Origin: an uncultured Candidatus Saccharibacteria bacterium
Lineage (GTDB): Bacteria > Patescibacteriota > Doudnabacteria > UBA920
Assembly (NCBI GenBank): GCA_964477745.1
Contig: CAYZEI010000002.1
Span: 5,054-69,053, forward strand
Length of the DNA: 64,000 nucleotides
Direction: 5' to 3'
Positions 30,728-59,165 of this stretch are shown here, in pieces. A model generated the notes under the pieces. It was not told the DNA's origin and ran no database searches. It saw only the letters and a program-made list of their open reading frames with translations. Position 1 is the stretch's first letter; each line of letters opens with the position of its first letter. A program made the position numbers and the translations under genes.

Positions 30728-30765
30728 ATTCTACGCGACTCTGTAATTACATAGTCGCGTAGAAT
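30728..30765. repeat. P-family 38-bp palindrome copy 1 (attctacgcgactctgtaattacaTagtcgcgtagaat, one mismatch) + T-run; probable terminator
   Basis: Homologous to 37853..37890 and 59076..59113. Confidence 0.6.
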
Positions 30766-30834
30766 TTTTTAAACTCAGGGCATCTTCGGGCAATTTTTGT
30801 TATAATACAAGCAAAGCCTTAAAGAAACTCCAAA

Positions 30835-31509
30835 ATGGACTACATTGCTGAAATTGCTAAAATTAAATTACCTTTTACCCCCGTTGATCTACCCTTTGTC
30901 AAACGGGTGTTTGATATTATTGTGAGTTTTTTTATTATCTGTCTCTTGTCACCGCTAATTGTGGTGATATTGGTCTTGTTCTATGTGGAAGAAATTTTTT
31001 TGGCTTCCAGCCGTGGCCCGCTATTTTATAAAGAAACCAGAATCTCCAAAGGTTTGCCATTTAAAGTTTTTAAATTCCGGATTTTCAAAACCACAGCCAG
31101 TGCCGGTTATTTAAAACAACACGGTATTATTCAAACCAAAGAACTGGAAGGGGACAATAAAAACATGACCCTCACCGGGCGATTGCTTAAACAAATCTAT
31201 ATGGATGAGCTCCCGCAAATTTATAATGTAATCAAAGGCGACATGACACTGGTGGGACCTCGTCCTTCCAATGAAGTGGTAACTTACGAAGACGGCATGG
31301 CAGGAAGGTTTCAGCGGTTTTTATTTAAAGGCGGTCTTACCGGCCCTTTCCAGGCACAAAAAGATTCCCCGACCAGACCAGTGCAAAGCGAGGCGGATAT
31401 TGAATATATTTTATTTTGTAAAAATAATCCCGGCTGGAAAATTATTTTAAAAGATCTGCACATAATTGGCCAAACAATTTTCACCGTACTGCGGGCTAAG
31501 GGGATATAA
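30835..31509 (+). CDS. Bacterial sugar transferase (polyprenyl-phosphate glycosyl-1-phosphate transferase family)
   Basis: FDIIVSFFII...PLFYKETRISKG...DELPQIYNVIKGDMTLVGPRP. Confidence 0.8.
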   Translation: MDYIAEIAKIKLPFTPVDLPFVKRVFDIIVSFFIICLLSPLIVVILVLFYVEEIFLASSRGPLFYKETRISKGLPFKVFKFRIFKTTASAGYLKQHGIIQTKELEGDNKNMTLTGRLLKQIYMDELPQIYNVIKGDMTLVGPRPSNEVVTYEDGMAGRFQRFLFKGGLTGPFQAQKDSPTRPVQSEADIEYILFCKNNPGWKIILKDLHIIGQTIFTVLRAKGI

Positions 31510-31527
31510 TTTTAAACCGATACTATA

Positions 31528-32655
31528 ATGGAACCATTAGCCAATAAAATTAGGCCCACTTCCTTAGAGACTTTTGTCGGGCAAAAACATTTGGTGGGCG
31601 AGGGCAAGCCCTTACGGCAGGCGATTGAAAATAAACACCTGTTTAGTTTTTTGTTTTGGGGTCCACCGGGAGTAGGAAAGACCACACTAGCCAGAATTTA
31701 TGCCAAAGCAGTTAATGCCGAATACCACGAGCTGTCCGCGGTGTCCGCCGGCAAAGACGACATTCGGGCAATTGTAGATAAACCAACCATGATGGGTCAG
31801 CCGAAAATTTTATTTTTGGACGAAATCCATCGCTTCAACAAAGCCCAACAGGATTTTTTATTACCTTACGTGGAATCGGGCAAACTCACTTTAATTGGCG
31901 CCACCACAGAAAATCCCAGTTTTGAAGTTATCCCGGCCCTACTTTCCCGCTGTCGAGTTTTTGTACTTAATGAACTTAGTAGTGACGAGGTAGGGGAAAT
32001 TATTAAACGATCAAAAGTCAAAATTACCAAAGAGGCCACTGCATGGCTTATTGCCCTGTCAAATGGTGATGCCAGACAAGCCCTGACTATGATAGATAAC
32101 TGTTTAAGTCTTTATGACAAACTAACCATTGAGAATTTAAAAAATACTTTACAATCAAAATTTTTACGGTACGATAAAAAAGGCGAGGAACATTACAATA
32201 TAATTTCCGCGTTTATAAAAAGCATGCGAGCCGGCCAAGCCAGTGCCGCTATGTATTATCTAGCCCGCATGGTGGAAGCAGGGGAGGACCCTAAATTTAT
32301 TGCCCGGAGAATGGTAGTTTTTTCCAGTGAAGATGTTGGGCTGGCCCAACCTACGGCCTTGGTGGTGGCTAACGCGGTTTTTGCCGCTTGCCTGCAAATT
32401 GGTTATCCGGAATGTGCTATAAACCTTGCTCACGGCGTGGCTTATTTAGCAAATTGCAAAAAAGATCGTAGCGCCTATAATGCTTTAAGATCCGCCCAGG
32501 AAGACGCAAAAAATTTAGGCAATTTGCCCGTGCCCTTGAAATTACGCAACGCTTCCACTAAACTAATGAAAGATTTAGGCTACGGTGAGGGTTACGAAAA
32601 ATACGATTCAGACGATTACCTCCCCAAAGAGCTTAAAGGTAAAAAATATTTTTAA
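31528..32655 (+). CDS. rarA: Replication-associated recombination protein A (AAA+ ATPase)
   Basis: Walker [10 protein letters not shown], Walker B FLDEIHRF. MgsA C-terminal domain. Confidence 0.9.
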
Positions 32656-32658
32656 ACT

Positions 32659-33096
32659 ATGGAAACCACCACAAATTTTGAAACTAATTTTCCTAACCCC
32701 GAAGCCGAGTCTGAACTTTTACGGATTGCCGGTGTTTTAGAAACTTTGGATCCAAAAAATAAAGACCACTACTTGGAAGTGTTAAAAAATACAGCGGTGG
32801 AAATTGAAAAAATTGTCAGACAAATTATTGACCACCCCATAGTTAAAGGCCATTACTCATATAACGGAATATTTTTTGAAAATAACAAAGAAATGATTCG
32901 CATTGAGGACGGACTTCACTTTTTAAAATCCATCACAACTTCTAAAGCCTTAGAACAAGCCTATAAGCTGGGGGGCGGAAGAGAAGGAGTTGCCGGACAA
33001 ATTGACAAGTTAAAAGGAGAATTGGACGAAGCTATTATCCAATTACAAAGCCTTTCTCTTATCCGCAAATTCGATAAATCAATTCCCCATGCCTAA
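32659..33096 (+). CDS. Hypothetical protein
   Basis: 145-aa ORF. Confidence 0.4.
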   Translation: METTTNFETNFPNPEAESELLRIAGVLETLDPKNKDHYLEVLKNTAVEIEKIVRQIIDHPIVKGHYSYNGIFFENNKEMIRIEDGLHFLKSITTSKALEQAYKLGGGREGVAGQIDKLKGELDEAIIQLQSLSLIRKFDKSIPHA

Positions 33097-33173
33097 TTTT
33101 CAGCCATTTAAGGAATAGCGACTACCGAGATTTAGCAAAGACAACAAATAAATTTGATTAAAATTATCTTTAC

Positions 33174-34043
33174 ATGCTCTCATTAAACACCAATCCACAA
33201 ACTCAACCCAAAAAGGATATCTTACATCAACAACTTATTCCACTTATTCTTACAGTTGTGGTTTTTTTGTTTTTGTGGGCAATTTTTTTTGTTGCCATTT
33301 TCGGACTGAATTTAATTCCGAATACTGACGACATTTCCCTTAAAATTAGGTGGTATGATGTGCTAATCGGAGGCACTATTTATTTAAAAACTTCCGTGGA
33401 TTTTGCTATTTTCATGGGCAGGCTTATGTCCAGCAATCCGGGCTGGAAAAATAGAATTGCCATAGAAATCGGCACAGCTTTGGGTAACGGACTTGGTACC
33501 ATTGTGGTATTAATAATATGGACATTCTTTAAAGAAGTTGAATGGCTGTTGGCAATAATGATCTTTATTGCTTCGATTGTGTTGTTTGAACTGGCATTTG
33601 CTTCGCTTGAACACTTTTCTAACTGGGAAGGCGAGGGCAAATTAAAACGCCTTACTTATTCCATAATAAACAACGGTTTAACATTTGCGGTAAAATTTAC
33701 TCAACCGATTACAAAAAAAATCCTCCCTGATTTAGGCGAAAAACTTAAGGGTAGCCAAGCGCTTCCGTGGAAAAAACTTTTATTCTTTTCCTTTAGCGTG
33801 CCCTTTATTTTAGGGCTAGATGATTTTGCCGGCTATGTGCCTTTATTTAATATTGTTAATGTATTCGGATTTTCCTTGGGGGTAATTGGAGCACACACCT
33901 TGTTAAATATTGCCTTGTTTATAAACCCCAGCGCTACTGTCAAAATTGTCCGAAATGAATGGGTGTCATTCATCGGCAGTCTTGCATTTATTGGCCTTGG
34001 TATTTGGGGATTAATTGAAGTTGTAAAAATAATCTTACACTAA
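33174..34043 (+). CDS. Hypothetical polytopic membrane protein
   Basis: Multiple TM helices. Confidence 0.45.
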   Translation: MLSLNTNPQTQPKKDILHQQLIPLILTVVVFLFLWAIFFVAIFGLNLIPNTDDISLKIRWYDVLIGGTIYLKTSVDFAIFMGRLMSSNPGWKNRIAIEIGTALGNGLGTIVVLIIWTFFKEVEWLLAIMIFIASIVLFELAFASLEHFSNWEGEGKLKRLTYSIINNGLTFAVKFTQPITKKILPDLGEKLKGSQALPWKKLLFFSFSVPFILGLDDFAGYVPLFNIVNVFGFSLGVIGAHTLLNIALFINPSATVKIVRNEWVSFIGSLAFIGLGIWGLIEVVKIILH

Positions 34044-35084
34044 ATGGATTTAGAGACTTTACTAAAACAGTACGACTACAAAATATCTCCACGTCGGATT
34101 GCTCAAAAACCAGCCAGCCCTCGCGACAGCGCGAGGCTTTTGGTATATCGGCAAAAAACTAAATCTTTAAGTTTTGATACATTTAAAAATATCGGTAAAT
34201 ACCTTCCACCTAACGCGTTGCTGGTATTTAACCAAACCAAAGTCGTACCCGCACGATTGCAAATTACCAAAACCACCGGCGGGAAAGCGGAAATACTTTA
34301 CATTAGCCACGATAAAAACCTCATTCAAGTCTTAAGTAACAGATATTTATCCATTGGTTCAAATATTCAACTCAGTCGCCAAGGTAAAAGCAATTTTTTG
34401 GTTGTTAAAAAAATTAAACAATTTTATTATCTTAAACCAAACTTTCCAACAAATAAAATAAAATCCATATTGGAGAAATATGGGCTTACTCCACTCCCGC
34501 CATATATTAAGCATTCTCCTTTAACCGAAAAACAAAAAAAAGAACAGTACCAAACCGTATTTGCCAAGGCGGGACTGTCCGTGGCAGCTCCTACGGCCAG
34601 CTTACATTTTACTAAAAATTTGATCGCCAAATTAAAAAAACAGGGGATTAGCATAAAATATGTAACCTTAAATGTAAATTTAGGAACCTTCGCACCCCTG
34701 CGGGAAGAAAATTTAGCGACCGGCAAACTTCATACTGAAAGTTATGAAATAGACAAAAAAACCGCAACTGAATTAAATTTAGCCCGCAAACAAAACCGCT
34801 CAATAATCGCCGCCGGCACAACAGTGGTAAGGACTTTGGAATCCGCATCTTTTAATGGAAAACTTAAAAACCTTTCCGGTAAAACCCAACTGTTTATTAA
34901 ACCCGGATTTAATTTTCAATTTACAACAGGGTTAATTACAAATTTCCATGTACCAAAATCCAGTTTACTCATGCTGGTGTCCGCCTTTGTCGGGAAAAAA
35001 ACTTTGTTTAATTTATATAAAAAGGCCCTTGCGAAAAAATTTAGATTTTTTTCTTTTGGTGATGGAATGCTGATTTTGCCTTAA
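34044..35084 (+). CDS. queA: S-adenosylmethionine:tRNA ribosyltransferase-isomerase
   Basis: YDYKISPRRIAQKPASPRDSARLLVY N-terminal signature. Confidence 0.9.
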   Translation: MDLETLLKQYDYKISPRRIAQKPASPRDSARLLVYRQKTKSLSFDTFKNIGKYLPPNALLVFNQTKVVPARLQITKTTGGKAEILYISHDKNLIQVLSNRYLSIGSNIQLSRQGKSNFLVVKKIKQFYYLKPNFPTNKIKSILEKYGLTPLPPYIKHSPLTEKQKKEQYQTVFAKAGLSVAAPTASLHFTKNLIAKLKKQGISIKYVTLNVNLGTFAPLREENLATGKLHTESYEIDKKTATELNLARKQNRSIIAAGTTVVRTLESASFNGKLKNLSGKTQLFIKPGFNFQFTTGLITNFHVPKSSLLMLVSAFVGKKTLFNLYKKALAKKFRFFSFGDGMLILP

Positions 35085-35311
35085 GGGCCTGTGGATATTT
35101 ATTTTTCTTTTTCTGCTGAATTTATTGTCGTTTAAAATCCGAAATTTGAAAAATCGCATAAATAAGACGGAATTATCCTATCAATTTCGTATTTTACTAT
35201 GAATAAGCCCTAACTCTCTTGACATGTTTTAAAAACCCTTGATTTTATTGGGTTTTTTAGTTAAGATTTAAACGTCTACACAAATTATTAAAAAAATGGA
35301 GACACAAAATT

Positions 35312-35584
35312 ATGACAAAGTCAGAAATTTTGCAGGCCTTAGCCGACAAGCTCGGTAAAACCCGCAAAGAAGTAAGCGAATTCATGGACGCCATGGTGGA
35401 AATGGCCTATGCCGTGACCAAAAAAGAAGGCGAATTTGTAATCCCAGGAATGGGCAAATTACAAAAGAAGCATCGCGATGCGAGAATGGGTCGCAACCCA
35501 GCCACTGGCGCCAGCATTTCAATTCCGGCCAAAACCGTTCTGAAATTCCGCGTAGCCAAAGCTGCCAAAGACGCCATCCTGTAA
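35312..35584 (+). CDS. hup: DNA-binding protein HU
   Basis: GRNPATGASISIPAK arm motif. Confidence 0.9.
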   Translation: MTKSEILQALADKLGKTRKEVSEFMDAMVEMAYAVTKKEGEFVIPGMGKLQKKHRDARMGRNPATGASISIPAKTVLKFRVAKAAKDAIL

Positions 35585-35598
35585 TTTATTACAAACTT

Positions 35599-35633
35599 AA
35601 ACCATCCCGCATAGTCGGGGTGGTTTTTTGTTT
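35599..35633 (+). terminator. Terminator (aaaccatcccg-catagt-cggggtggttt + T)
   Basis: 11-bp stem with one G-U pair. Confidence 0.6.
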
Positions 35634-35659
35634 TCCGAATTTTATGGTATAATATTCAA

Positions 35660-36100
35660 ATGAAAATACATCCAAGTAAAATATTTTTAGAAACAAAAAA
35701 ACAGTTTGAAATAGTGGATATTACCAGCCACGTGCAAAAGGCGGTTTTGGAATCCGGGATTAAAAACGGAATAGTGGTTGTATTTTGCCCGCATACCACC
35801 GCCGCAATTAGAGTTAATCATAATGAACCGCTACTACTTCAGGACATTATGAAAACCCTTTACCGCATAGTGCCCATAGATCAAAGCTATAGTCATGATT
35901 TATTTGAGGTCAGACAAAACGTGGCTCCAAATGAGCGAAGTAATGGCCATGCCCACGTGAAAGCTTTTTTACTTGGATCATCCGAAAATTTACCAATTGA
36001 AAAAGGGTCTCTTTCCATTGGCGCTAAACAAAGCGTGTTATTTATTGAACTGGACGGCGGAAGAAGCAGGGAAGTAAATTTACAAATTTTGGGAGAATAA
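35660..36100 (+). CDS. YjbQ/UPF0047 family protein
   Basis: FCPHTTAAI...HAHVKAFLLG family blocks. Upstream TGgTATAAT. Confidence 0.75.
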   Translation: MKIHPSKIFLETKKQFEIVDITSHVQKAVLESGIKNGIVVVFCPHTTAAIRVNHNEPLLLQDIMKTLYRIVPIDQSYSHDLFEVRQNVAPNERSNGHAHVKAFLLGSSENLPIEKGSLSIGAKQSVLFIELDGGRSREVNLQILGE

Positions 36101-36226
36101 CCAAAAATACTTTTTACCGGCGCATCGCGCACCGGTGCCCTATGAAATTTTAATAAATACTCTTAAGGATGGTCGGTCTTAAGAAATCTTCAGACAAAAA
36201 AATCAAAATAAATTAAAGAAAGGACT

Positions 36227-36913
36227 ATGATGGAATATACTACTTACCAATTAATGGTAGTCAACGCTTTGGGGGATTTGTACTCCAAAACAATAATCTA
36301 CCTGCCAAATATTCTTGCCGCGGTAATTGTTTTGGTTCTCGGTTGGATTTTGGCAATATTTTTAAGCAAGTTGGTTGTTAAAATTTTAGATGTAATTAAA
36401 GTTGATTCGCTTGCCAACCAGTTAGGAATGCAAAACTTGGGGCAAAAAATGGAAAAGAAACTTAGCCTATCCGCGCTTGGCGGTTGGCTGGTTAAATGGT
36501 TCTTCTTCATTGGAAGCATTATTGCCGCCACTGACATTTTAGGACTTCAGGCAATTTCAACTTTTCTATTTCAAGGAGTACTTAGCTATGCCGGGCAAGT
36601 GATTGTGGCAATGGCGATTTTACTTTTGGGTTTACTGGCTGCGAATTTCTTTTCCGGCATAGTAAATTCCGCAGTCAAAGCCAGCGGACTTCATAAAGGC
36701 GAGGCTTTGGGCGCATTAACCAAATGGGCGATTGTGGGATTCAGCGTGATTGCAGCGCTATCACAATTACAAATTGCTACCGCATTCTTACAGGACTTGT
36801 TCCGAGCCATTGTGGCCATGTTGGCCATTGCCGGCGGATTGGCTTTTGGTTTGGGCGGACAGGGCACAGCCAAACGAATCTTGGAAAGCGCGGAAGAAAC
36901 TTTAAAATCTTAA
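36227..36913 (+). CDS. Membrane protein with two 'conserved TM helix' repeats
   Basis: Internal duplication of an approximately 100-aa unit. Confidence 0.45.
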   Translation: MMEYTTYQLMVVNALGDLYSKTIIYLPNILAAVIVLVLGWILAIFLSKLVVKILDVIKVDSLANQLGMQNLGQKMEKKLSLSALGGWLVKWFFFIGSIIAATDILGLQAISTFLFQGVLSYAGQVIVAMAILLLGLLAANFFSGIVNSAVKASGLHKGEALGALTKWAIVGFSVIAALSQLQIATAFLQDLFRAIVAMLAIAGGLAFGLGGQGTAKRILESAEETLKS

Positions 36914-36938
36914 ACAATCGTAAAAAATACTGTATACT

Positions 36939-36979
36939 ATTCTCAGACTCCGCAAAATGCGGAGTCTGAGAATTTTTTT
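36939..36979 (+). terminator. Terminator (attctcagactccg-caaaat-gcggagtctgagaat + T7)
   Basis: Near-perfect palindrome. Confidence 0.7.
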
Positions 36980-37849
36980 ATGTCTATGATTAGAAAACTA
37001 CTTACAACTTTTATTTTAATCTTTATTGCTATTGGGCTATTAGGTATTTACTATGTTATAAAGCTCAAAAACACCCCAAAAACGGTTAAAACACCTGCCA
37101 AGGCTCAAGAGGTCACCTTGCGCTTTATTGAAGGCTGGAACACAACGCAGATTGCCTCATATTTGAATTTCTATGGGGATCGCCCGCAACTGGCGCATAT
37201 CGTAAACAGCGGGGATTTTTTGGTCGCCCAAAAAGAATTTTCCGTAAAAGATTACCCGCTTCTCGCATCCAAGCCGGAAAAAGCCGATCTGGAAGGTTTT
37301 TTGTTTCCGGACAGCTATCGCTTTTACCTTTCTGCACTAAGCCTTGCTTCCAGCACGCCTAAGGAAATTAGCAATACCATAATAAAAAAAATGCTGGATA
37401 ATTTTGCTTTAAAATTTACCCCTGAAATGCAGAAGCAAGCGGACAAACAAAAATTATCCGTTTATAAAATTATTACCTTAGCTTCGGTACTGGAAAAAGA
37501 AACCGGTGCCAGTTTAGCGGAAAAGAAAATTGTGGCCGGAATTTTTTATAACCGGTTAAAAATCGGCATGCCGTTGCAAAGTGATGCTACAGTAAATTAC
37601 GCCACCAAAAAAGATCTACCCAGCCCAACTGAGGCAGATACCAAAATTGACTCCCCGTACAACACTTATAAATACCCGGGACTGCCGATGGGGCCCATCT
37701 GTAACCCCTCTTTAAACTCCATAATTGCCGCGTTAGAGCCCGATAATACCGACTACCTGTATTTCCTCCATGACCAAAAAACCGGCCAAGCCTACTACGC
37801 CAAAACCTACGACGAGCACTTTGCTAACAAGTACAAATACTTAAAATAA
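36980..37849 (+). CDS. mltG: Endolytic murein transglycosylase (YceG-like)
   Basis: N-terminal TM. EGFLFPDSYRF signature. Confidence 0.85.
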   Translation: MSMIRKLLTTFILIFIAIGLLGIYYVIKLKNTPKTVKTPAKAQEVTLRFIEGWNTTQIASYLNFYGDRPQLAHIVNSGDFLVAQKEFSVKDYPLLASKPEKADLEGFLFPDSYRFYLSALSLASSTPKEISNTIIKKMLDNFALKFTPEMQKQADKQKLSVYKIITLASVLEKETGASLAEKKIVAGIFYNRLKIGMPLQSDATVNYATKKDLPSPTEADTKIDSPYNTYKYPGLPMGPICNPSLNSIIAALEPDNTDYLYFLHDQKTGQAYYAKTYDEHFANKYKYLK

Positions 37850-37852
37850 TAT

Positions 37853-37890
37853 ATTCTACGCGACTCTGTAATTACAGAGTCGCGTAGAAT
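37853..37890. repeat. P-family palindrome copy 2 (perfect 38-bp, centre TAATTA)
   Basis: attctacgcgactctgtaattacagagtcgcgtagaat. Confidence 0.6.
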
Positions 37891-37947
37891 CATTTATAGA
37901 CAAATAAAAAATGCACGAGCGTGCATTTTTTATTTTAAGAAAATAAT

Positions 37948-38874: not shown

Positions 38875-38875
38875 A

Positions 38876-38952
38876 TTAGCGATCCTAATCTCCGAATAGC
38901 ATCCGAATGTTCCGAATGGGCCCAATTCGGGGCATTCGGATATAATTCGTTG
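38876..38952. repeat. Imperfect long palindrome built from ccgaat / attcgg units
   Basis: atccgaatagcatccgaatgttccgaatgggcccaattcggggcattcggatataattcgttgtattcggat. Confidence 0.5.
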
Positions 38953-38964
38953 TATTCGGATCGG

Positions 38965-39528: not shown

Positions 39529-39532
39529 AGAT

Positions 39533-39614
39533 TTTACGAAATACGAACCTTTACGAACTTACGAATTTTCCCGCGAGCTTTGTTCGTAAGTTCGTAGGCA
39601 TTCGTACTTCGTAA
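39533..39614. repeat. 'acgaa' palindromic element copy 1 (tttacgaa..tacgaac..ttacgaa / ttcgtaagttcgta..ttcgtacttcgtaaa)
   Basis: Homologous to 40158..40232 and 56903..56985. Confidence 0.65.
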
Positions 39615-39618
39615 AAAA

Positions 39619-40155: not shown

Positions 40156-40157
40156 AT

Positions 40158-40232
40158 TTTACGAAGTACTAACCTTTACGAACTTACGAATTTACACCCG
40201 AGCTCACTTCGTAAGTTCGTATGAATTCGTAC
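40158..40232. repeat. 'acgaa' palindromic element copy 2
   Basis: As above. The central 15-20 nt differ between copies. Confidence 0.65.
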
Positions 40233-40241
40233 TTCGTAAAA

Positions 40242-40745
40242 TCAAATTAATTTCTTTGCCTTCCAGTCCGCAACAATTTCTTCCCCTTGGGTGTATTTTT
40301 TTATAAGGTCAATAATTAAAATGCCGTTTATGTGGTCAATTTCATGCTGAGCTACGCGGGCAATCCAGCCGTCATCGGAAAATTTAACTTTTTTGCCGTC
40401 GGCGTTCCAAGCTTCAATAGTAACTTTTTTCGGCCTTCGGACAGTGCCATAAACATTCGGAATAGAAAGGCACCCCTCTTCCAAGTCTACCTTTTTTAAA
40501 CTGCGCGAAATAACTTTGGGATTATACAAAGCCATTAAGGGTACGCCGTTTTTTTCCAAGTTAATAACAATTAGCTTAAGAGATTTTCCTACCTGTGGAG
40601 CAGCCAAGCCAATACCGTCGGCATTGCGCACGGTGTCTATCATGTCTTTAGTTAATTTTTGAACTTCCTTGGACAACGGAAAAACCACCGGCTCAGTCGG
40701 GTTTCTTAAAAATTTATTTGGGAATTTTAAAATTGGTAAAATCAT
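40242..40745 (-). CDS. def: Peptide deformylase
   Basis: GIGLAAPQVG, EGCLSIP, HEIDHINGIL. Confidence 0.95.
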   Translation of the reverse strand: MILPILKFPNKFLRNPTEPVVFPLSKEVQKLTKDMIDTVRNADGIGLAAPQVGKSLKLIVINLEKNGVPLMALYNPKVISRSLKKVDLEEGCLSIPNVYGTVRRPKKVTIEAWNADGKKVKFSDDGWIARVAQHEIDHINGILIIDLIKKYTQGEEIVADWKAKKLI

Positions 40746-49624: not shown

Positions 49625-49657
49625 ACCCTAATATTATAGCACTTTTGTGAAATCTTT

Positions 49658-50992: not shown

Positions 50993-51058
50993 TTAGCGAA
51001 CTGTGAACGGCGATTTTAACTAATCGCTAATTACTATTCTCTATTCACTAGGAACCAA

Positions 51059-51343: not shown

Positions 51344-51359
51344 TTCCCCTATTTTAAAA

Positions 51360-51391
51360 ATCCCCCCGATATTCATCGGGGGGATTTTTTG
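51360..51391. terminator. Bidirectional terminator (atccccccgat-attc-atcggggggat + T)
   Basis: Palindrome plus T-run. Confidence 0.7.
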
Positions 51392-51398
51392 ATGCTTT

Positions 51399-51653
51399 TT
51401 ATGTGTGTTTTATTTTTAACGCTAAAATCACAACGGCAAACAAAAAAGAGATTATGTTGGAAATGTAGATTGGGGGTTGCTTTAATAATAGCCCGTAAAT
51501 AACCCACAATAAAGTTCCGGAAATCAAAGTAGCATAAGTCCAAAAAGACAAATCGCCTGCACTTTTGGTTTTATATAATTTTAATGCTTGCGGTAAAAGG
51601 GAAACGGTTGTTAAAGTTGCCCCTAGCGTGCCGATAATTGCAATGTAATCCAT
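51399..51653 (-). CDS. SemiSWEET (PQ-loop/MtN3 family) sugar transporter
   Basis: 84 aa with 3 TMs. LPQALKLYKTKSAGDLS PQ-loop motif. Confidence 0.7.
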   Translation of the reverse strand: MDYIAIIGTLGATLTTVSLLPQALKLYKTKSAGDLSFWTYATLISGTLLWVIYGLLLKQPPIYISNIISFLFAVVILALKIKHT

Positions 51654-51656
51654 TAG

Positions 51657-53360
51657 TTATTTTATACCTTTCAACTTCACGACAGATTTCATAAACCCGG
51701 CAAATAGTGGGTGTGGGGACAACGGGCGGGATTGAAATTCCGGATGGAATTGACTGGCCACAAAATACGGATGATTTTTGAGTTCAATAATTTCCACCAA
51801 TTTACCGTCCGGTGTAGTACCGGAAATAACCAACCCGGCAGATTCTAATTTTTCCCGATACTCATTGTTAAATTCATAACGGTGGCGGTGGCGTTCGCTA
51901 ATTTTGGCCTTGCCGTTTTTGTTTATTAGTCCGGCGTCAAGGTAAGCTTTTTCGGTTACGGTTCCGCGAGTAATTACGCAGTCCCAAGACCCGAGACGCA
52001 TAGTTGCGCCGTATTCGCGATTCAATAATTTCTTTTCCTGGTCAGGCATAATGTGAATAACTTTATGCGGAGCGTCATCATCCACTTCGGTTGTATTGGC
52101 TCCTTTTAACTTTGCCACATTACGGGCAAATTCTATGCTGGCCATTTGCATACCATAACACAAACCCAAATATGGTACGTTATTTTCTCGCGCAAATTGA
52201 ATAGTTTGGATCATCCCCTCAGTTCCCCTACTGCCAAAGCCTCCCGGCACTACAATGCCGTCAAATTCTCCCAAAACAGCCTTAGCGCCCTTCTTTTCTA
52301 TATCTATACTAGAAACCCAGTGCAAATTAGTCTTGACCCCATTTAACCACGATGCGTGCTTAATGGCCTCCACAACCGAAATATAAACATCGGCCAATTT
52401 ATAGGCGCCGGTTTCATAATATTTTCCCACAACCCCTATGTTAACAACTTTTTTAGAAGAGCTGGACTTGGTAATTCTTGCTACCAAATTTTTCCATTCC
52501 TTAAATTCATTTTTCCTCGGCTTCATTTTGAACTTTTCCAAAATTTTGTCTGTAAACTTTTGTGCGTCAAAATTCAAAGGCACGCGGTAAATAGAATCGG
52601 CATTTGGCGCAGCAATAATATGTGTAGCCGGAATGTTACAAGTCCAGGCTAAAGTTTCTTTGCGTCTGTCGTCTACCGGTAATTCCGCTCTGGCTACCAA
52701 AAAGTCCGGCTGAATACCACTGGCAATAAGTAATTTAACCGAGGTCTGCGCCGGCTTGCTCTTCATTTCCCCAACACTTGGAGGGGTCGGCAAATAGGCC
52801 ACGTGAACATGGACCACATCGCGATTGTCGCGATACTTCATAATACGGTTCGCTTCCACAAACAAAATATTTTGGTACTCCCCGACTGTTCCGCCAATTT
52901 CCGCAATGACAAAATCTGCCTTTCTTTCTGAAGCAGCCAACTCAAGCCTACGAATAATTTCTTCCGGCACATGCATAGCCACTTCCACATCTTCACCGTC
53001 ATATTCAAAATTACGTTCTTTTTGGATTATATGCTGATACAGCTGGCCATTGGTTAAATAGTTGGAGCTGGTTAAATCCGTATTCATAAACCGCTCGTAG
53101 TTGCCCAAGTCCTGGTCGGTTTCCATACCATCCTTGGTCACAAACACTTCCCCGTGTTCCTGTGGACGAATTGTCCCGGCATCCACATTCAAATAGGCAT
53201 CCATTTTTACCGGTGCCACGCGGTACCCGCGAGATTCCAGCAAAAGAGCTAAAGATGCTGTTGTAACACCTTTACCGACAGAAGAAATAACTCCTCCGGA
53301 AACAAAAATAAACTTGGTATTCAACTTTTTGGCTTTGCGTGGTTTGATGTGGTAGGACAT
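51657..53360 (-). CDS. pyrG: CTP synthase
   Basis: FVSGGVISSVGKG. GATase GLCYGMQ. Confidence 0.95.
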   Translation of the reverse strand: MSYHIKPRKAKKLNTKFIFVSGGVISSVGKGVTTASLALLLESRGYRVAPVKMDAYLNVDAGTIRPQEHGEVFVTKDGMETDQDLGNYERFMNTDLTSSNYLTNGQLYQHIIQKERNFEYDGEDVEVAMHVPEEIIRRLELAASERKADFVIAEIGGTVGEYQNILFVEANRIMKYRDNRDVVHVHVAYLPTPPSVGEMKSKPAQTSVKLLIASGIQPDFLVARAELPVDDRRKETLAWTCNIPATHIIAAPNADSIYRVPLNFDAQKFTDKILEKFKMKPRKNEFKEWKNLVARITKSSSSKKVVNIGVVGKYYETGAYKLADVYISVVEAIKHASWLNGVKTNLHWVSSIDIEKKGAKAVLGEFDGIVVPGGFGSRGTEGMIQTIQFARENNVPYLGLCYGMQMASIEFARNVAKLKGANTTEVDDDAPHKVIHIMPDQEKKLLNREYGATMRLGSWDCVITRGTVTEKAYLDAGLINKNGKAKISERHRHRYEFNNEYREKLESAGLVISGTTPDGKLVEIIELKNHPYFVASQFHPEFQSRPLSPHPLFAGFMKSVVKLKGIK

Positions 53361-53372
53361 AGATTTTGAATT

Positions 53373-53404
53373 TTCCGCCAGAGGCGGATCCGCCTCTGGC
53401 GGAA
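53373..53404. terminator. 32-bp perfect palindrome (ttccgccagaggcGGATCCgcctctggcggaa) between convergently ending genes
   Basis: Perfect inverted repeat. Confidence 0.6.
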
Positions 53405-53436
53405 AGAATTAAGATTTAGGATTTAAGAAATTAAAA

Positions 53437-54510
53437 TTATTTTGTAAATTTAAAGGTTGAAAGTATTTTATTTATCAAAATATTGTCTTCATACAGCACC
53501 CCAACACCATCTGGACTGCTACCTTCGTTCACATAAGACTGAAAACCTATTCGTAATGTTTTATTTCCTAAAACGGTTTCTACTTCAGAAGACATCCAAG
53601 GGCCATCGCCGTTTCCATACATATAACCAATTTGGTCACCGACCTTGACTTGCTTTGCATCTTCTACAATACCTCCAAGATTTTCAATCTTTTTTGGGTC
53701 AAATTTTTTATTTAATACCTGCGTGCCAATCGTGTCAGGCCCCTTAGTCAATGCTATAAACCCTTCCGCAAGACCACTTTGCAAAACAAAATCTGCCGGA
53801 TGCATAAACTCAAACCCGTACTGCTCATTTGTATATGCTTGCCAGTTTGAGGTGTCAAGTGATTTTGTAAATTTAAAGGTTGAAAGAATCTTTTTAAACT
53901 CTTCTGGAATCAATGACTCGCTAGAAAATTGGAAAACTTGATTATCTTTAATAATAAATGCCGAGCCACTAATCCCTCTGCCTTCTGGTTCCAAATAATA
54001 TCCTCTAGTTCCATTAAAATCGATTGTTTCGGTCGTTTTGGAGGATACCAGAAAATCTCCTAAAGTTTTAAAGTTATTTCCATTTTTATTTAAAACAATA
54101 CCGGGGTCATTCTTAGAAACAGTTATCCAAATAGTTGACTCATACCCTTCCTCGGCCAATTGACATTTAGATGTCTTTTCACAAATAAAAATTAAGCCAT
54201 CTTTCTCTTGTTTTATTGTCCAATCAGTTGGGTAGTTAATTTCAAACCCATACTGGTCATTTTTATAAGTTATCCAATCTTTAATCTCTGAATCGCTTAT
54301 TTGCTGACTTGCTGATTTGCTGACCTCATGCTTCGGCAAACTATTTTGTGTCTCTTCGTAAATCTTTTGTCGATACTGATTGCTCCATACGGAAAACATT
54401 ACTAAAGTAATGCCGGAAAATAGAAAGACAAAAATAAACACCAAAGAAAGCATTTTTAGCTTTGGATTGGCTTCCCACATATCCGGTTTTGGTTCAAGAT
54501 TGTCTATCAT
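53437..54510 (-). CDS. Hypothetical N-terminally anchored protein with duplicated C-terminal module (ILSTFKFTK repeat)
   Basis: Internal repeat visible in both protein and DNA (tttgtaaatttaaaggttgaaag occurs twice). Confidence 0.45.
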   Translation of the reverse strand: MIDNLEPKPDMWEANPKLKMLSLVFIFVFLFSGITLVMFSVWSNQYRQKIYEETQNSLPKHEVSKSASQQISDSEIKDWITYKNDQYGFEINYPTDWTIKQEKDGLIFICEKTSKCQLAEEGYESTIWITVSKNDPGIVLNKNGNNFKTLGDFLVSSKTTETIDFNGTRGYYLEPEGRGISGSAFIIKDNQVFQFSSESLIPEEFKKILSTFKFTKSLDTSNWQAYTNEQYGFEFMHPADFVLQSGLAEGFIALTKGPDTIGTQVLNKKFDPKKIENLGGIVEDAKQVKVGDQIGYMYGNGDGPWMSSEVETVLGNKTLRIGFQSYVNEGSSPDGVGVLYEDNILINKILSTFKFTK

Positions 54511-54513
54511 AAA

Positions 54514-54960
54514 TTATTCTGCTTCTACATTAATCTTGGTTTCCGCCGTTATGCCGGAAGCCAGGCGGACTTTTACCGGGTGAAGTCCCAAAGTTTTAAT
54601 CACCCCGGAAATTTCAATTTGGCTCTTTTCCAATTCCAATCCCATCTTGCTATTTATGGCCGACAAAATATCTTTTTCATGGACACTGGAAAATACCTGA
54701 CCCTTTTCCCCAACTTTAATTTTGAAAGAAAAGGTTCGTTTTTCTATGTCGTTTTTTAAGGCCCGCAATTTCTCAGTTTCCTTTAATTTCTTTGTATGTG
54801 CTTCCTTTTGTTCTTTTGCCACTGTGGCTTGAATTTGTGGGGTAGCAATTTGTGCAAAACCTTTGGCAATTAAAAAATTCTTACCGTAGCCTTCGCTAAC
54901 GTCTTTAATCTCCCCTTTTTTGCCTGCTCCAGGTGCGTCTTTTGTAAATATAACTTTCAT
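54514..54960 (-). CDS. rplI: 50S ribosomal protein L9
   Basis: [30 protein letters not shown]. Confidence 0.9.
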
Positions 54961-54964
54961 AAAT

Positions 54965-55090
54965 TAAAGATACAAATTAACAAATGCACAAATAATACAA
55001 ATAACAACAAATTTTAAAACCAAGTATTTGTAGGCATTTGTATCATTTGTGTTTTTGTATATTCGTATTACATTTTGTTAAAAATAAAAA
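54965..55090. repeat. Imperfect long palindrome built from acaaat / atttgt units
   Basis: gatacaaattaacaaatgcacaaataatacaaata ... gtatttgtaggcatttgtatcatttgtg. Confidence 0.4.
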
Positions 55091-55239
55091 ACTCCCTTTT
55101 TCTTCCAAATTTCTAACTTTTTTGGAAGATTTATAAGAGAGTCCAGTGTCTTCTTTTTCCTACAAGCTACAAGCAAATAGCTATAAGCTAATAAGGGCTC
55201 TTTGTTAGTATACTTGAGAGAGAAAATATGTCAAATACC

Positions 55240-56157
55240 CTATATTTTTAAATACTTTCTCACAGCTAAGAAAGTCGAACCAATAGACAGTACCAAGGAC
55301 AACCCAAACAAAATTACTAGTAAGTAGGCATAATTAAATACGCTATTGTTATATAGACTGACGTTAGGACTTACATAATTGGTCACGGCCGGAATTATCT
55401 TGGTGAATACAGGAATAAACAACATCCCGGTAATTAAAGTAGAAAAAATACTATACATTAAACTTTCCATTAAAAAGGGCCCGCGAATATACCAATTAGT
55501 CGCTCCCACCAGACGCATAATTTCAACTTCTTCTTTGCGGTTATAAATTGTCAGGGTAATTGTGTTATAAATAACCAAAACCGCAATTAACGCAAACACC
55601 GCAAACAGTGCTAAACCAAAAGTAATAATAAACCCTAGCACTTTGGTTAACCGCTCAATTATAACCCGATTATCTTCATAATTTACCTTGTCCACAAAAT
55701 TGGTATATTTTTCCGACTGCATTTTTTCGGCCACGGCCGGATAATCTTCCAAGTTCACGGCTTTAATATGCAAAGTAGCGGGGAGTGGATTTTCGTTTAA
55801 CTCATTAAGTGATTGGGTAATTAGTTGGTCATCTTGGTGCTTAGCTTTAAAATCCTCAAAAGCCTGGACTGCGGAAACATAAACCACTTCTTTTACTTTA
55901 GGATCTTGAGAAATTTCAGTTTTAATAGTTTTAATTTGGTCTTCGGCTAATCCGATTTTAAAATACACGCTAATATCTACAGTGTTTTGAATTGTCTTAA
56001 TGGAGTAGTTGGTTAATACAAACAACAAAAACAAGGTAGAAAAAATTACCAAGGTTATGGTCATGACCATAGTGGCAGCCATAGACAACCATAAGTTACG
56101 AACAAAATTCGTAGCTCCGGTTTTTATGACTCGTAAAAATGAAATGGAATCAAACAT
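55240..56157 (-). CDS. ftsX: Cell division permease FtsX
   Basis: 4-TM FtsX topology downstream of ftsE. Confidence 0.8.
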   Translation of the reverse strand: MFDSISFLRVIKTGATNFVRNLWLSMAATMVMTITLVIFSTLFLLFVLTNYSIKTIQNTVDISVYFKIGLAEDQIKTIKTEISQDPKVKEVVYVSAVQAFEDFKAKHQDDQLITQSLNELNENPLPATLHIKAVNLEDYPAVAEKMQSEKYTNFVDKVNYEDNRVIIERLTKVLGFIITFGLALFAVFALIAVLVIYNTITLTIYNRKEEVEIMRLVGATNWYIRGPFLMESLMYSIFSTLITGMLFIPVFTKIIPAVTNYVSPNVSLYNNSVFNYAYLLVILFGLSLVLSIGSTFLAVRKYLKI

Positions 56158-56221
56158 AAAATAGGTGTTAGGTTTTAGCTTGTAGCTTCTAGGGTTAAAC
56201 CTAAAAGCTAGTAGCTATAAG

Positions 56222-56899
56222 CTAGAGCTTGTATTTTCCTTTTTGTTGTTCAATAGTAATTTTTCCGCCTTCAATAGTAATAACGCGCTTTTTAATTTTA
56301 TTTACTAAATCCGAGGCGTGAGTTGCTAAAATTACGGTTGTCCCCAGCTGGTTTATTTTCATTAGCAAATCTATGACTTCAGCGGCATTAACTTCGTCCA
56401 AATTTCCGGTAGGCTCGTCGGCAAGTAACAGTAATGGGCGGTGTGATAAGGCGCGGGCAATGGCTACGCGTTGTTTTTCTCCGCCGGACATTTCGTGAGG
56501 AAAACTGTCTTTTTTATGCAAAAGCCCGACTAAATCCAAAATTTTTGGCACTTCCAGCTTAATCTTATCTAACCTATGTCCACAAACTTCCATGGCAAAA
56601 GCCACGTTTTCAAACGCGGTACGTCTAGGTAGAAGTTTGATATCCTGAAAAACCATGCCGATTTTTCGGCGCAAATAAGGGAGGTCGGATTTTTTAACTT
56701 TTGTTATATCAACATCATCAATAAAAATTTTTCCGCCGTCTATCGCCTCTTCACGAATAATCAATTTCAAAAGAGTGGACTTGCCGGCGCCTGAAAGCCC
56801 CACAATCGAGACAAATTCTCCCCGATGCACCTGCAAATTAATGCCGTCTAAGGCACGTTGATGATTATATTTTTTTACAACATTTTCAAATTTGATCAT
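56222..56899 (-). CDS. ftsE: Cell division ATP-binding protein FtsE
   Basis: Walker A GLSGAGKST. ABC signature LSGGEKQR. Start set at MIKFENV. Confidence 0.9.
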   Translation of the reverse strand: MIKFENVVKKYNHQRALDGINLQVHRGEFVSIVGLSGAGKSTLLKLIIREEAIDGGKIFIDDVDITKVKKSDLPYLRRKIGMVFQDIKLLPRRTAFENVAFAMEVCGHRLDKIKLEVPKILDLVGLLHKKDSFPHEMSGGEKQRVAIARALSHRPLLLLADEPTGNLDEVNAAEVIDLLMKINQLGTTVILATHASDLVNKIKKRVITIEGGKITIEQQKGKYKL

Positions 56900-56902
56900 A
56901 AT

Positions 56903-56985
56903 CTTTACGAATACGAACATTTACGAACATACGAAATTAGCACTTGTATAAATTCGTAAGTTCGTATTAATTCGTACTTCGTAAA
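56903..56985. repeat. 'acgaa' palindromic element copy 3 (between prfB and ftsE)
   Basis: ctttacgaatacgaacatttacgaacatacgaaatt...aattcgtaagttcgtattaattcgtacttcgtaaaa. Confidence 0.65.
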
Positions 56986-57003
56986 ATCATTATACCAGAT
57001 TTT

Positions 57004-58098
57004 TTATCTTGTCGCGAAGAATTCCAAGTATTTTTCTACAAACTCATCTAATTCTCCGTTAAGCACGCTCTCGGGATCGGACATCTCAAGTGCCGTGCGA
57101 TGATCTTTAACCATCTTGTACGGATGCAAAACGTATGAGCGAATTTGATTCCCCCACTCCGCGGACTTAAACTCCCCGCGAATTTCCTGTTTTTCTTTTT
57201 GTAATTTTTCTTCTTCCAAAGTTTTCAATTTAGCCATTAAAATTTTCATGGCGATTTCCCGGTTCTGATGCTGACTGCGTTCATTTTGAATACTAACCTT
57301 TATGCCGGAAGGAATATGGGTAATTCGAATAGCAGAGTATGTGGTGTTTACAGACTGACCGCCATGACCGGAAGCGGTATTGGCTTCTATCTTTAAATCT
57401 TTGGGGTCAATTTTTAATTCTTCTTGTTCTTCTAAAAGTGGCAATAATTCTAATAGCGCAAAAGACGTTTCGCGGGTATGAGCGGGGTTAAAAGGACTCA
57501 AGCGCACCAAGCGATGTACCCCGGCTTCACTTTTAAATAAACCGTAAGCGTACGGCCCCTTTACTTCCACCACGCAAGTTTTTAATCCGCCTTGTTCCCC
57601 GCGTGAGAGTTCCAAAATTTCCGTGGTAAAACCTTTTTTGTCCGCGTAACGTAAAAACATGCGCAGGAGCATATCCGCCCAATCTTGCGCGTCCACTCCC
57701 CCGGCGCCGGAGTGTAAAGAAAATATGGCGTTGTGGTCGTCAAATTTTTTATTTAACAAAGCCACAAACCGATTTTTTTTGTACTTTTCTTCCAGCTCGC
57801 TAAATTGTTTTTTTAAATATTCTACGGTCTCTTCCGATTCATCCTGATTGGTTTTGACCAATTCCAAAGTCTCTTGGGTTTCTTTTTCTAAATTTATCCA
57901 AAAATCATAAAAGTTTTTTAATGCCTTGTATTCCTGAGAAACTTTTTGAGCGTGTGCATTGTCCGCCCAAAAATCCGGAGCTTGCATTAAATCGGCCAAC
58001 TCTAAAACCCGCTGTTGTTTTTGTTCCAACCGCAAATGGCCTTTTAAATCCGAAATTGCACTTAACAATTCGGCTAATTTTTTTTGTAATTCATTCAC
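57004..58098 (-). CDS. prfB: Peptide chain release factor 2 (single continuous ORF, no +1 frameshift site)
   Basis: SPF motif (RLSPFNPAHTRE). GGQ motif. Confidence 0.95.
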   Translation of the reverse strand: MNELQKKLAELLSAISDLKGHLRLEQKQQRVLELADLMQAPDFWADNAHAQKVSQEYKALKNFYDFWINLEKETQETLELVKTNQDESEETVEYLKKQFSELEEKYKKNRFVALLNKKFDDHNAIFSLHSGAGGVDAQDWADMLLRMFLRYADKKGFTTEILELSRGEQGGLKTCVVEVKGPYAYGLFKSEAGVHRLVRLSPFNPAHTRETSFALLELLPLLEEQEELKIDPKDLKIEANTASGHGGQSVNTTYSAIRITHIPSGIKVSIQNERSQHQNREIAMKILMAKLKTLEEEKLQKEKQEIRGEFKSAEWGNQIRSYVLHPYKMVKDHRTALEMSDPESVLNGELDEFVEKYLEFFATR

Positions 58099-58282
58099 AG
58101 GAAGATATTAAAAATAACTAGTTCATTATAACAGGAAAAATGCCGCATTATATACTAAATTGGACAAAATGTCAATACCCCCGCTTTTTAAAGGTATAGA
58201 CATTTTAGTGGTTTTTTGTAAAAATGTATGGTCAAGAGAAAATCACATCTCTTGAGAAAACCCCAAAGGAGGGGTAAATACA

Positions 58283-58489
58283 ATGGTTAATATACTTCGT
58301 GGTTTGCTGGGAGCCATAGCTGTCGAATTTGCACTAATTCCTGCTGTCGCAGGGTGGTGCCGAGGAGAGGGATGCGTCTCCAATACTTTCGGAGTAGGAT
58401 TACTCCACATTCTGGCAGTCGCCTGCCTAATTTGCGGAGCTGTCGCCACATTTTGGCCAGCGATCACCAGCCGTCAGAAACTGCGGTAA
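58283..58489 (+). CDS. Small hydrophobic/membrane peptide (68 aa) in GC-rich islet
   Basis: AAAGGAGGGG SD 8 nt upstream. Two hydrophobic segments. Confidence 0.4.
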   Translation: MVNILRGLLGAIAVEFALIPAVAGWCRGEGCVSNTFGVGLLHILAVACLICGAVATFWPAITSRQKLR

Positions 58490-58507
58490 ACACTACCGCA
58501 TACTCTC

Positions 58508-58538
58508 GCAGGGAACCCTGGTTCCCTGCTCTTTTTTA
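58508..58538 (+). terminator. Terminator (gcagggaacc-ctg-gttccctgc + T6), followed by two more hairpins (58550-58582, 58599-58617)
   Basis: On direct reading. Confidence 0.65.
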
Positions 58539-58592
58539 TATAAAATTTTGGCCGTGCTCCCCTTGTAAGAGTCACGGCCAGTGTCTGCGAGT

Positions 58593-59021
58593 CTATATGG
58601 CCACGTTGTAGTGGCCTAAGATGTATTCTATAAGCACCTCCTTCTGTGCCAGTTTGTGGTGTCCTTCCAGGTGTTTGATCCCCGAAAAAAGTAATATCCT
58701 GATTAACTGCTGGCGACTAACCCCGTAAGAACGGGACAGCTCGCCAAGTTTGCTAATCAAAGACGGACGACAGGGTATCTTCCCCTGGTGATGTGCCACA
58801 TCACTGTTCAATTCGTTTCCCGCTTGGAGCGGGAAATCAGGTTGGCGTTCTATCACGGATAGCATAACCTCAAGCAGAAATACTGTCTGCTCTACTAAAT
58901 GCCTACCGCTTTGCTCCGCCATCTCCGCAAGAAGATGGTGAAGCTCTTTTCCATATCCAAGGGACAGTTTTGCGGGCATGATTTGCCAGCGAACATATCC
59001 CGGGCTGTAGTATTCTACCAA
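58593..59021 (-). CDS. Putative tandem ribbon-helix-helix (CopG/Arc-like) DNA-binding protein in GC-rich islet
   Basis: KLSLGYGKELHHLLAEMAEQSGRHLVEQTVFLL and LISKLGELSRSYGVSRQQLIRILL both fit the RHH beta-alpha-alpha pattern. The true start may be the internal ATG (MPAKL). Confidence 0.35.
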   Translation of the reverse strand: MVEYYSPGYVRWQIMPAKLSLGYGKELHHLLAEMAEQSGRHLVEQTVFLLEVMLSVIERQPDFPLQAGNELNSDVAHHQGKIPCRPSLISKLGELSRSYGVSRQQLIRILLFSGIKHLEGHHKLAQKEVLIEYILGHYNVAI

Positions 59022-59045
59022 ATTTACGAGAAAAAATCCATACTT

Positions 59046-59165
59046 AAAAACCGCTCTGCGAGAGCGGTTTTTACTATTCTACAAGACTCTGTAATTACAG
59101 AGTCTTGTAGAATCCTTTAATAATATTCATGAGACATAAAATGCGCGGCCGCGCATTTTATGTCA
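59046..59165. repeat. Three consecutive palindromes downstream of folA: aaaaaccgctct-cgc-agagcggttttt; P-family copy 3 (59076..59113, attctacAAgactctgtaattacagagtcTTgtagaat); cataaaatgcGCGGCCGCgcattttatg
   Basis: P copy 3 differs from copies 1 and 2 by paired compensatory changes that keep perfect dyad symmetry. Confidence 0.6.

Follow-up and report, generated by a model that had tools for sequence, protein, structure and literature searches.

The genomic stretch analysed here (64 kb, referred to as the window; positions 5,054 to 69,053 of contig CAYZEI010000002.1, assembly GCA_964477745.1) derives from an uncultured bacterium of the Patescibacteria, or Candidate Phyla Radiation (CPR), and contains three copies of a 38-bp palindrome, located at 30728-30765 (copy 1), 37853-37890 (copy 2) and 59076-59113 (copy 3). 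Our favoured explanation, which we regard as probable if only by a little, is that these palindromes are double-stranded DNA sites for the dimer of a minimal PaaX-type protein made up of a winged helix and a Cas2-like domain, a protein that would have two such sites bracketing its own gene and a few further ones. Direct support comes from the conservation of the element, the association of gene and element, the co-divergence of the two and the fold of the protein; from these we infer physical binding, repression and the existence of a regulon.

The palindrome in the window and in related genomes

Copy 2 is the perfect 38-bp palindrome ATTCTACGCGACTCTGTAATTACAGAGTCGCGTAGAAT. Copy 1 shows a single-base departure, T for G at position 25 (window 30752), by which the pairing with C14 is lost, and copy 3 carries the exchanges G8A and C9A (59083-59084) together with their mirror images G30T and C31T (59105-59106), which makes it a perfect palindrome again. 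Regarding the arms, copies 1 and 2 are of type 1 (GCGACTC), a second type found in relatives reads AAAACAA (type 2), and copy 3, a type-1 variant with CAAG/CTTG, is intermediate with AAGACTC. The initial annotation of the window had described the three copies in these terms, with one mismatch in the first, perfect symmetry in the second and, in the third, a change of cgcg to caag with a mirrored counterpart that keeps the dyad symmetry exactly, and all of this was confirmed. By chance no copy would be expected: in dinucleotide-preserving shuffles of the window (n=100) the pattern was matched 0 times, which rules out a chance or low-complexity artefact. The relaxed skeleton TCTA-N11-AATT-N11-TAGA, allowing ≤2 mismatches, yielded no further convincing copy within the window.

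Genome and metagenome collections were scanned with the half-site pattern TCTACNNGACTCTGTAATTAC, which puts no constraint on the other arm or on the two covarying positions. Real matches were confined to assemblies of Patescibacteria and came from the metagenome-assembled genome (MAG) CAYIHW01 (labelled Saccharibacteria), from JBBRWU01 (labelled Doudnabacteria), from Hainich H41 groundwater contigs and from two JGI metagenomes; three loci (L006, L013, L017) with half-site matches only, lacking the second arm, were set aside as chance. The 34-bp core TCTACGCGACTCTGTAATTACAGAGTCGCGTAGA is identical in every real copy of the scan, from at least four related genomes, and variation is found only at the outermost two bases. 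Copies are few, with 4-5 exact ones recovered per fragmented MAG and 3 in the 64 kb of the window. Neither a scan of viral contigs nor blastn searches against phage and plasmid collections gave a match to the element, and a phage or plasmid origin was ruled out on this basis.

Several of the loci in relatives align with the window over kilobases at 72-86% nucleotide identity, and the window therefore stems from a Patescibacteria genome akin to these but absent from the collections scanned. Orthologues of copy 1 are present at L015, L004/L012/L014 and L003, and the arrangement of DNA_alkylation stop codon, palindrome, a spacer of ~70 nt and Bac_transf is kept in four genomes. Copy 3 has orthologues at L002/L011/L016 within the gene row ThyA-DHFR-palindrome-unknown open reading frame (ORF)-RF2; since these carry CGCG, the CAAG/CTTG double change of copy 3 arose in place. 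Further conserved sites in relatives lie between RecG and a DksA-like gene/RadA (L007/L009, L008) and, at L001/L010, upstream of rpsP. Pairwise comparison of orthologous loci gives ~95% identity for the palindrome, as opposed to 37-55% for the adjacent 60 nt. Between the window and L003, for example, 35/38 positions agree in the palindrome and 26/54 and 29/60 in the flanks; for L002 the corresponding values are 34/38, 22/60 and 22/60. Because the palindrome has been retained next to decayed flanks, the sequence itself, beyond its ability to pair, is under purifying selection. Judged from these sequence comparisons, the palindrome is real and functional, and its preserved dyad symmetry reflects that function. 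At position 25, where alone copy 1 is asymmetric, the window has T and the orthologue at L015 (1574) has A, and more distant orthologues keep G; this may mark either a mutation hotspot or selection that favours imperfection of the site at this locus.

The RecG and RadA loci showed two additional features. At L008 two different members of the element family (292-328 and 396-432), one a TGTCTAATTTTGTA-TGTAATTACA variant and one of type 1, are separated by 70 nt that include a terminator-like hairpin; the pair is located upstream of a DksA/TraR-type zinc-finger gene and adjoins RadA. At L007 the RecG helicase (1608-4157) has a PD-(D/E)XK nuclease domain (PDDEXK_3, residues 446-558) inserted between DEAD and Helicase_C.

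A PaaX_M-type gene bracketed by the element

At two loci in relatives, L005 and L018, two copies of the window's palindrome, 925-943 bp apart, bracket an ORF that encodes a PaaX_M-type protein of 225 aa. In nine further homologue lineages, whose protein identity falls from 84% to 36%, an element of the same architecture and lineage-specific sequence again lies on both sides of the gene, and double flanking was thus found in 11/11 lineages examined. The common form of the element comprises 36 bp, GTCTA-N8-(10-bp palindrome centred on AATT)-N8-TAGAC, as in GTCTA-N8-TGTAATTACA-N8-TAGAC, and is described by the generalised pattern GTCTA-N8-NNNAATTNNN-N8-TAGAC; the GTCTA-N26-TAGAC geometry is kept in at least 7 lineages. 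Conservation in each half-site falls on two patches, the outer box (G/T)TCTA and one half of the central TGTAA/TTACA. The element reads AGTCTAC-AAAACAA-TGTAATTACA-TTGTTTT-GTAGACT at L019, GTCTAATTTTATA-TGTAATTACA-TATAAAATTAGAC at L025, GTCTAAATTTATA-TGTAATTACA-GAAAAATTTAGAC at L020, GTCTAATATTTAAGG-GAATTC-... at L026, TTCTAATAAATCC-TGTAATTACA-TAAAATACTAGAC at L027 and GTCTAATAATTCC-AGCAATTGCT-GAAATTATTAGAC at L030. More divergent versions are found at L021, L023, L028 and L029, and upstream of the gene at L021 half an element plus the centre is retained. Protein identity and element identity are correlated (Spearman 0.70, Mantel permutation p ~0.001).

The flanked gene product matches PaaX_M (Pfam PF20803, E 1e-11 to 1e-12) as its sole Pfam domain and, at 225 aa, stops immediately behind the Cas2-like domain, so that the PaaX_C ligand domain is absent. 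A profile built from 14 homologues matches 3,421 clusters at 50% identity, 1,891 of them at E≤1e-10, and members are mostly 180-230 aa long. They are annotated as hypothetical in the source records; NCBIfam holds no name for the family, and PADLOC gave only weak winged-helix-type matches. The structure was modelled with AlphaFold2 from an alignment of 94 sequences (mean predicted local distance difference test score 83.6), which replaced an earlier model from 14 sequences that was poor in the N-terminal half. In Foldseek the best PDB match of this model is PaaX of E. coli W (8a39, E 2.5e-4); further matches are Cas2 structures for the C-terminal domain and, for residues ~55-125, the winged helices of AspA, PadR and MarR. 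G116, D146 (the Asp of the Cas2 "DI" signature) and Q172 are invariant across the 94 diverse family sequences. Residues 35-62 are strongly hydrophobic and modelled with only moderate confidence, and may either belong to the core of the winged helix or form a segment in the membrane. No paa genes were present in any of the neighbourhoods inspected around the flanked gene.

At L018 the upstream copy ends 13 nt before the extended -10 element TGaTATAAT of the gene and covers its -35/spacer region. Where the two flanking copies are asymmetric, they form direct repeats in L020, L021 and L027 and inverted ones in L023; together with the conserved synteny of the gene (L018/L019/L020) this rules out a transposon with terminal inverted repeats. 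In two Doudnabacteria-type genomes the gene is located directly upstream of a type IV secretion-like cluster (L019 11035-20678, L020 9732-19308) with TrbL_3, PrgI, TraC-like, VirB4/TraG-type ATPase, PDDEXK_3 and 23S_rRNA_IVP/bAvd-like genes, and it has different neighbours in more distant lineages. Contigs of the P0001 cluster with a type-1-flanked gene are mostly just 0.8-3 kb long, which fits assembly breaks at repeated palindromes; given such breaks, the element may be under-represented in MAGs.

Put together as a mechanism, the protein would act as a homodimer, with a winged helix at the N-terminus, a Cas2-like domain for dimerisation and no PaaX_C ligand domain. In the bacterium of the window its gene would be encoded elsewhere in the genome, its presence being assumed from the relatives. 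Each half-site would be read via the outer (G/T)TCTA box and one half of the TGTAA/TTACA centre, the outer boxes being ~31 bp apart, roughly three helical turns, which would correspond to the geometry of the E. coli PaaX operator. Two sites would bracket the protein's gene, as in the relatives, with the upstream one abutting or overlapping the promoter, and this placement suggests autoregulation. To these the copies in the window would add other members of a small, regulon-like group of sites whose intergenic positions are conserved, with Bac_transf/MgsA, YceG/Fmt and DHFR/unknown ORF/RF2 as neighbours in the window and RecG/DksA-like/RadA and the region upstream of rpsP in relatives.

Competing explanations and the genomic setting of the copies

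Copies 1 and 2 both begin 3 nt after the stop codon of a plus-strand gene, of the DNA_alkylation family (gene end 30724) and the YceG family (gene end 37849), respectively. The initial annotation had placed all three copies just downstream of stop codons, which applies to these two and not to copy 3; the latter is found 71 nt past the stop (59185) of the minus-strand DHFR gene, behind the gene's own terminator hairpin. The same annotation had left the choice between an RNA hairpin and a dimeric DNA-binding site. As an RNA hairpin in 3' untranslated regions or intergenic transcripts, the element could serve as terminator, processing site (e.g. for RNase III) or stabiliser, perhaps bound by the Cas2-like/winged-helix protein. 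The position of copies 1 and 2 suits this idea, as do the predicted folds of the window copies (17-bp stem, 4-nt loop, -25 to -27 kcal/mol, z-scores -7 to -13), the run of T5-6 after copy 1 and some orthologues, the two compensated pairs of copy 3 and the complementarity of the arms, which pair in 90.8% of cells versus 64.7% in shuffles (21 distinct family members, 357 cells). Covariation was tabulated over the same 21 members, as the annotation had proposed: changes occur on both sides in 15/17 arm pairs, and a one-sided change is seen in just one cell. The compensation in copy 3 is nevertheless no proof of RNA pairing, because a homodimer site or hairpin-templated correction of DNA gives the same pattern.

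Several features argue against the RNA hairpin, which we consider distinctly unlikely. G.U pairs and one-sided intermediates, which are normal in evolving RNA helices, are almost absent, and the central 10 bp, the would-be loop, form a conserved palindrome of their own that exists in three versions (TGTAATTACA, GGGAATTCCC and AGCAATTGCT). The element does not change in sequence from species to species, whereas an ordinary terminator of the window (36939-36973, ATTCTCAGACTCCGCA...TGCGGAGTCTGAGAAT followed by T6) drifts with compensation, showing two compensated pair changes relative to its counterpart in the 85%-identical L015 (7930-7964); compensation alone is therefore not special here, and it is the sequence invariance that is. 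Copies 2 and 3 adjoin separate canonical terminators. Next to copy 2 lies a canonical bidirectional terminator of A-tract, stem and T-tract (37902-37935), which renders copy 2 dispensable for termination, and copy 3 comes after the terminator-like hairpin 3' of DHFR (59133-59164), with a second A-tract/stem/T-tract hairpin (59045-59073) on its other side. Within the window a T5 run follows copy 1 only, and the T-run is not conserved among orthologues. The element is not the GC-rich stem-loop followed by a U-tract that defines an intrinsic terminator, and a consensus terminator scanner made no call at copies 1 and 3 and one at copy 2 on the minus strand only.

Distant members of the family speak against an RNA structure as well. 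Symmetry is kept by the outer boxes and the centre in L027, L029, L030 and the L026 copy downstream of the gene, and the linkers there are non-complementary, differing even between the two copies at one gene; the L027 element has no folding energy to speak of (-0.6 kcal/mol, z 0.35). At the Rfam 15 gathering threshold only four tRNAs pass in the window and the element has no match, and at a permissive threshold the surroundings of copy 2 gave only generic hairpin matches far below gathering scores, so that a known RNA family was ruled out. The half element retained at L021, the layout of the E. coli PaaX operator and the regular bracketing of a gene for a PaaX-type winged-helix protein also point to DNA. 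On these comparisons the evidence favours a double-stranded DNA site bound by a dimer over an RNA hairpin; of the alternatives in the initial annotation, function as the reason for the symmetry holds, and the DNA-binding site is the preferred form of it. Perfect intergenic palindromes of 32-42 bp without spacer are otherwise common (window 7203-7234, 8150-8189, 13760-13793, 14729-14762 and 53372-53405; L007 4397-4438), and perfect symmetry as such is thus common in these genomes.

A number of observations weigh against the favoured explanation of sites for a PaaX-type regulator. The spacing between site and promoter varies, being 13 nt (L018), ~38 nt (L005) and ~52 nt (L019) for the gene of the protein itself and 25-35 nt for Bac_transf, and copy 2 is situated between convergent genes, where no promoter is expected. 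In the clade of the window the symmetry extends over the full 38 bp, including the 8-bp linker that varies between types, and simple recognition of the boxes needs none of this. At the YceG/Fmt locus, L015, 85% identical to the window, has type 2 where the window has type 1; the two differ by six mirrored changes with 0 unpaired, next to coding sequence that is ~92% identical (55/60 nt), and such a wholesale swap of types is not expected for a passive operator. Likewise, type 1 flanks the PaaX-like gene in L018/L005 and type 2 flanks its syntenic orthologue in L019, the proteins being 84-85% identical. A comparison of L018/L005 with L019 revealed no convincing pattern of recognition-helix residues that would explain the two types, and gave no support to a specificity switch there as their cause. 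Finally, neither tblastn nor a profile hmmsearch of all six-frame ORFs detected a member of this protein family in the 64-kb window. Not every site is promoter-proximal, and a roadblock or an architectural role fits at least as well as classical repression.

At L020 and L027 the pair of copies around the gene agree down to their asymmetric details, a sign of concerted evolution within a genome; the cause may lie in co-evolving specificity, in gene conversion or in something that the protein itself does. Without any selection, the arms could be held identical through hairpin-templated correction of quasi-palindromes, a process that cannot explain the type swaps. The exchange of whole types at orthologous loci and the within-genome identity of copies are in line with a different reading, according to which these are DNA palindromes similar to repetitive extragenic palindromic (REP) elements that form single-stranded hairpins or cruciforms and are copied, converted or homogenised by the product of the flanked gene, its Cas2-like domain acting as a nuclease. 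A gene flanked by two copies, as RAYT genes are, would fit, and so would copy 3 as an intermediate or chimera of types 1 and 2, the perfect palindromes with AT-rich centre in this clade, the CTAC/GTAG at the stem base of types 1 and 2, the invariance of D146 and the shortness of the gene-bearing contigs, as expected if assemblies break at repeats. Set against this are the apparently low copy number, positions that are stably orthologous across species with no empty sites seen, the conserved synteny of the gene, flanking copies that are direct in some lineages and inverted in L023 and hence not terminal inverted repeats, and the lack of hairpin potential in distant lineages. In addition, the Cas2-like domain of PaaX has a role in dimerisation and not in catalysis (PMC9493321). 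Taking both sides together we regard REP-like behaviour as unlikely. Its most far-reaching form, a previously unrecognised REP/RAYT-like self-maintaining system in which the protein recognises extruded hairpins or cruciforms and a Cas2-type active site with the invariant Asp copies or converts types between fixed loci, appears quite unlikely to us; if true, it would account for the type swaps, for the chimeric nature of copy 3 and for palindromes that are perfectly symmetric.

The palindromes might also be sites for a different DNA-binding factor, a nucleoid or segregation protein or another regulator, with the PaaX-like gene merely one conserved target. The sites are few, strongly conserved and symmetric, some of them away from promoters (copy 2 between convergent genes, copy 3 between terminators), and they resemble parS or centromere-like sites; the centromere binder AspA is among the best structural analogues of the winged helix, and the neighbouring genes are rich in functions of DNA metabolism (AlkD-like, MgsA, RecG, RadA, ThyA/DHFR). 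However, the double flanking of one gene family in all lineages examined and the co-divergence are most simply fitted by a cognate pair, and no alternative candidate was identified, which leaves this possibility with a similarly low probability.

Regarding the immediate surroundings of the copies, copy 1 ends 69 nt before the start of Bac_transf. The gene row Bac_transf-MgsA-...-QueA has a putative extended -10 element, TGtTATAAT, on the plus strand at 30798-30806, as judged by sequence alone; its TATAAT starts 35 nt after copy 1, and the orthologous spacers also contain TATAAT, at 25-35 nt. A consensus promoter scanner, which demands a -35 hexamer, made no call on this motif. Copy 2 is placed between the convergent YceG and Fmt genes, ahead of the bidirectional terminator. 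Copy 3 is located upstream of a conserved minus-strand ORF without assigned function (58593-59021), and a plus-strand ORF running through it (58899-59120) is probably spurious.

The window contains other repeats. Two inverted-repeat elements of 85 bp (39532-39616 and 40156-40242), with arms 85-86% complementary, are composed of TACGAA/TTCGTA hexamers, four per arm, and occupy the spacers between def, two tandem exonuclease paralogues of the RNase_T family and fmt; these arrays look like binding-site arrays for another regulator. Just upstream of fmt on the minus strand (38893-38949), three CCGAAT hexamers followed by three to four inverted ATTCGG hexamers follow the same design. A 39-nt direct repeat with the palindrome ATTCTGCAGAAT (25654-25692 and 25964-26002, 87% identical) directly precedes and overlaps the start codons of two consecutive plus-strand ORFs (25679-25975 and 26003-27532).

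Comparison with known systems

Patescibacteria are mostly uncultivated, and gene regulation in this group is almost without experimental knowledge. The pairing described here connects a large unnamed protein family (~3,400 clusters at 50% identity) with a defined element of 36-38 bp and a handful of conserved target loci, and the hypothesis of regulator and site can be tested directly, as oligonucleotide and protein are both synthesisable. Type swapping, which is unusual for an operator, could reveal either a rapid co-evolution of specificity or a new palindrome-converting activity. In the searchable literature neither the element nor a PaaX-like protein from CPR was found to be described; the LexA motif of Patescibacteria lies outside this comparison. 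A link to the relBE operator of E. coli in the literature, through the 10-mer TGTAATTACA, was judged coincidental.

The Rho-independent bidirectional terminators of the genome share with the element an intergenic location and perfectly symmetric hairpins just past stop codons. They differ in their A- and T-tracts, GC-rich stems and unique sequences that drift between relatives, whereas the element is repeated, invariant in sequence across species and mostly without a T-tract. The operator of HrcA, CIRCE, has the sequence TTAGCACTC-N9-GAGTGCTAA. It is likewise a long inverted repeat, highly conserved across species and bound by the dimer of a winged-helix repressor; the element differs from it in sequence, is not located upstream of groES/dnaK and has another partner protein.

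REP elements occur in tens to hundreds of dispersed copies per genome, and the associated RAYT protein is similar to Y1 (HUH) transposases. REP elements with a RAYT transposase were reportedly the subject of work by Nunvar (2010), Bertels and Rainey (2011) and Ton-Hoang (2012). Common to both systems are short extragenic palindromes whose stem base carries GTAG/CTAC, a single-copy gene with one such palindrome on either side, and lineage-specific sequence classes with compensated stems. Unlike RAYT, the flanked gene encodes PaaX_M and a winged helix and has no Y1_Tnp match in Pfam, and the copy number of the element, as counted in the window and in fragmented MAGs, appears lower by one to two orders of magnitude, with perfect palindromes at stable orthologous sites. 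AspA of the Sulfolobus plasmid pNOB8 and ParB/parS-type systems resemble the present case in having few conserved palindromic sites and winged-helix recognition; here, however, no gene for a partition ATPase or adaptor is seen beside the flanked gene, and sequence similarity is weak (E 0.05).

The closest parallel is PaaX, a repressor of E. coli and Pseudomonas. The operator of E. coli PaaX, TGATTC-N27-GAATCA, places two short boxes in inverted orientation at a distance of three helical turns, and the Cas2-like domain of the protein was assigned a role in dimerisation (PMC9493321). PaaX, the best structural match of the protein described here, likewise joins a winged helix at the N-terminus to a Cas2-like domain (PaaX_M) behind it, its operator has the same layout of two short inverted boxes about three turns apart within a total of 36-39 bp, and it represses its own Px promoter; in L018, too, a site is located at the promoter of the regulator gene. 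Differences exist in the sequence of the boxes, in the length of the protein (225 aa versus ~305 aa for PaaX), which lacks PaaX_C and has an extra hydrophobic N-terminal stretch, and in the conserved central 10-bp palindrome that is added to the element, along with the full 38-bp symmetry in this clade. The phenylacetyl-CoA-sensing PaaX_C domain and the linkage to paa genes that characterise PaaX are both absent, the sites bracket the gene on both sides, and the hosts are Patescibacteria. From the sequence evidence we lean towards regarding the finding as a PaaX-type regulator with a split-palindrome operator, one that would be unusual in its 38-bp symmetry, its central box, the double flanking of its gene and the swapping of types.

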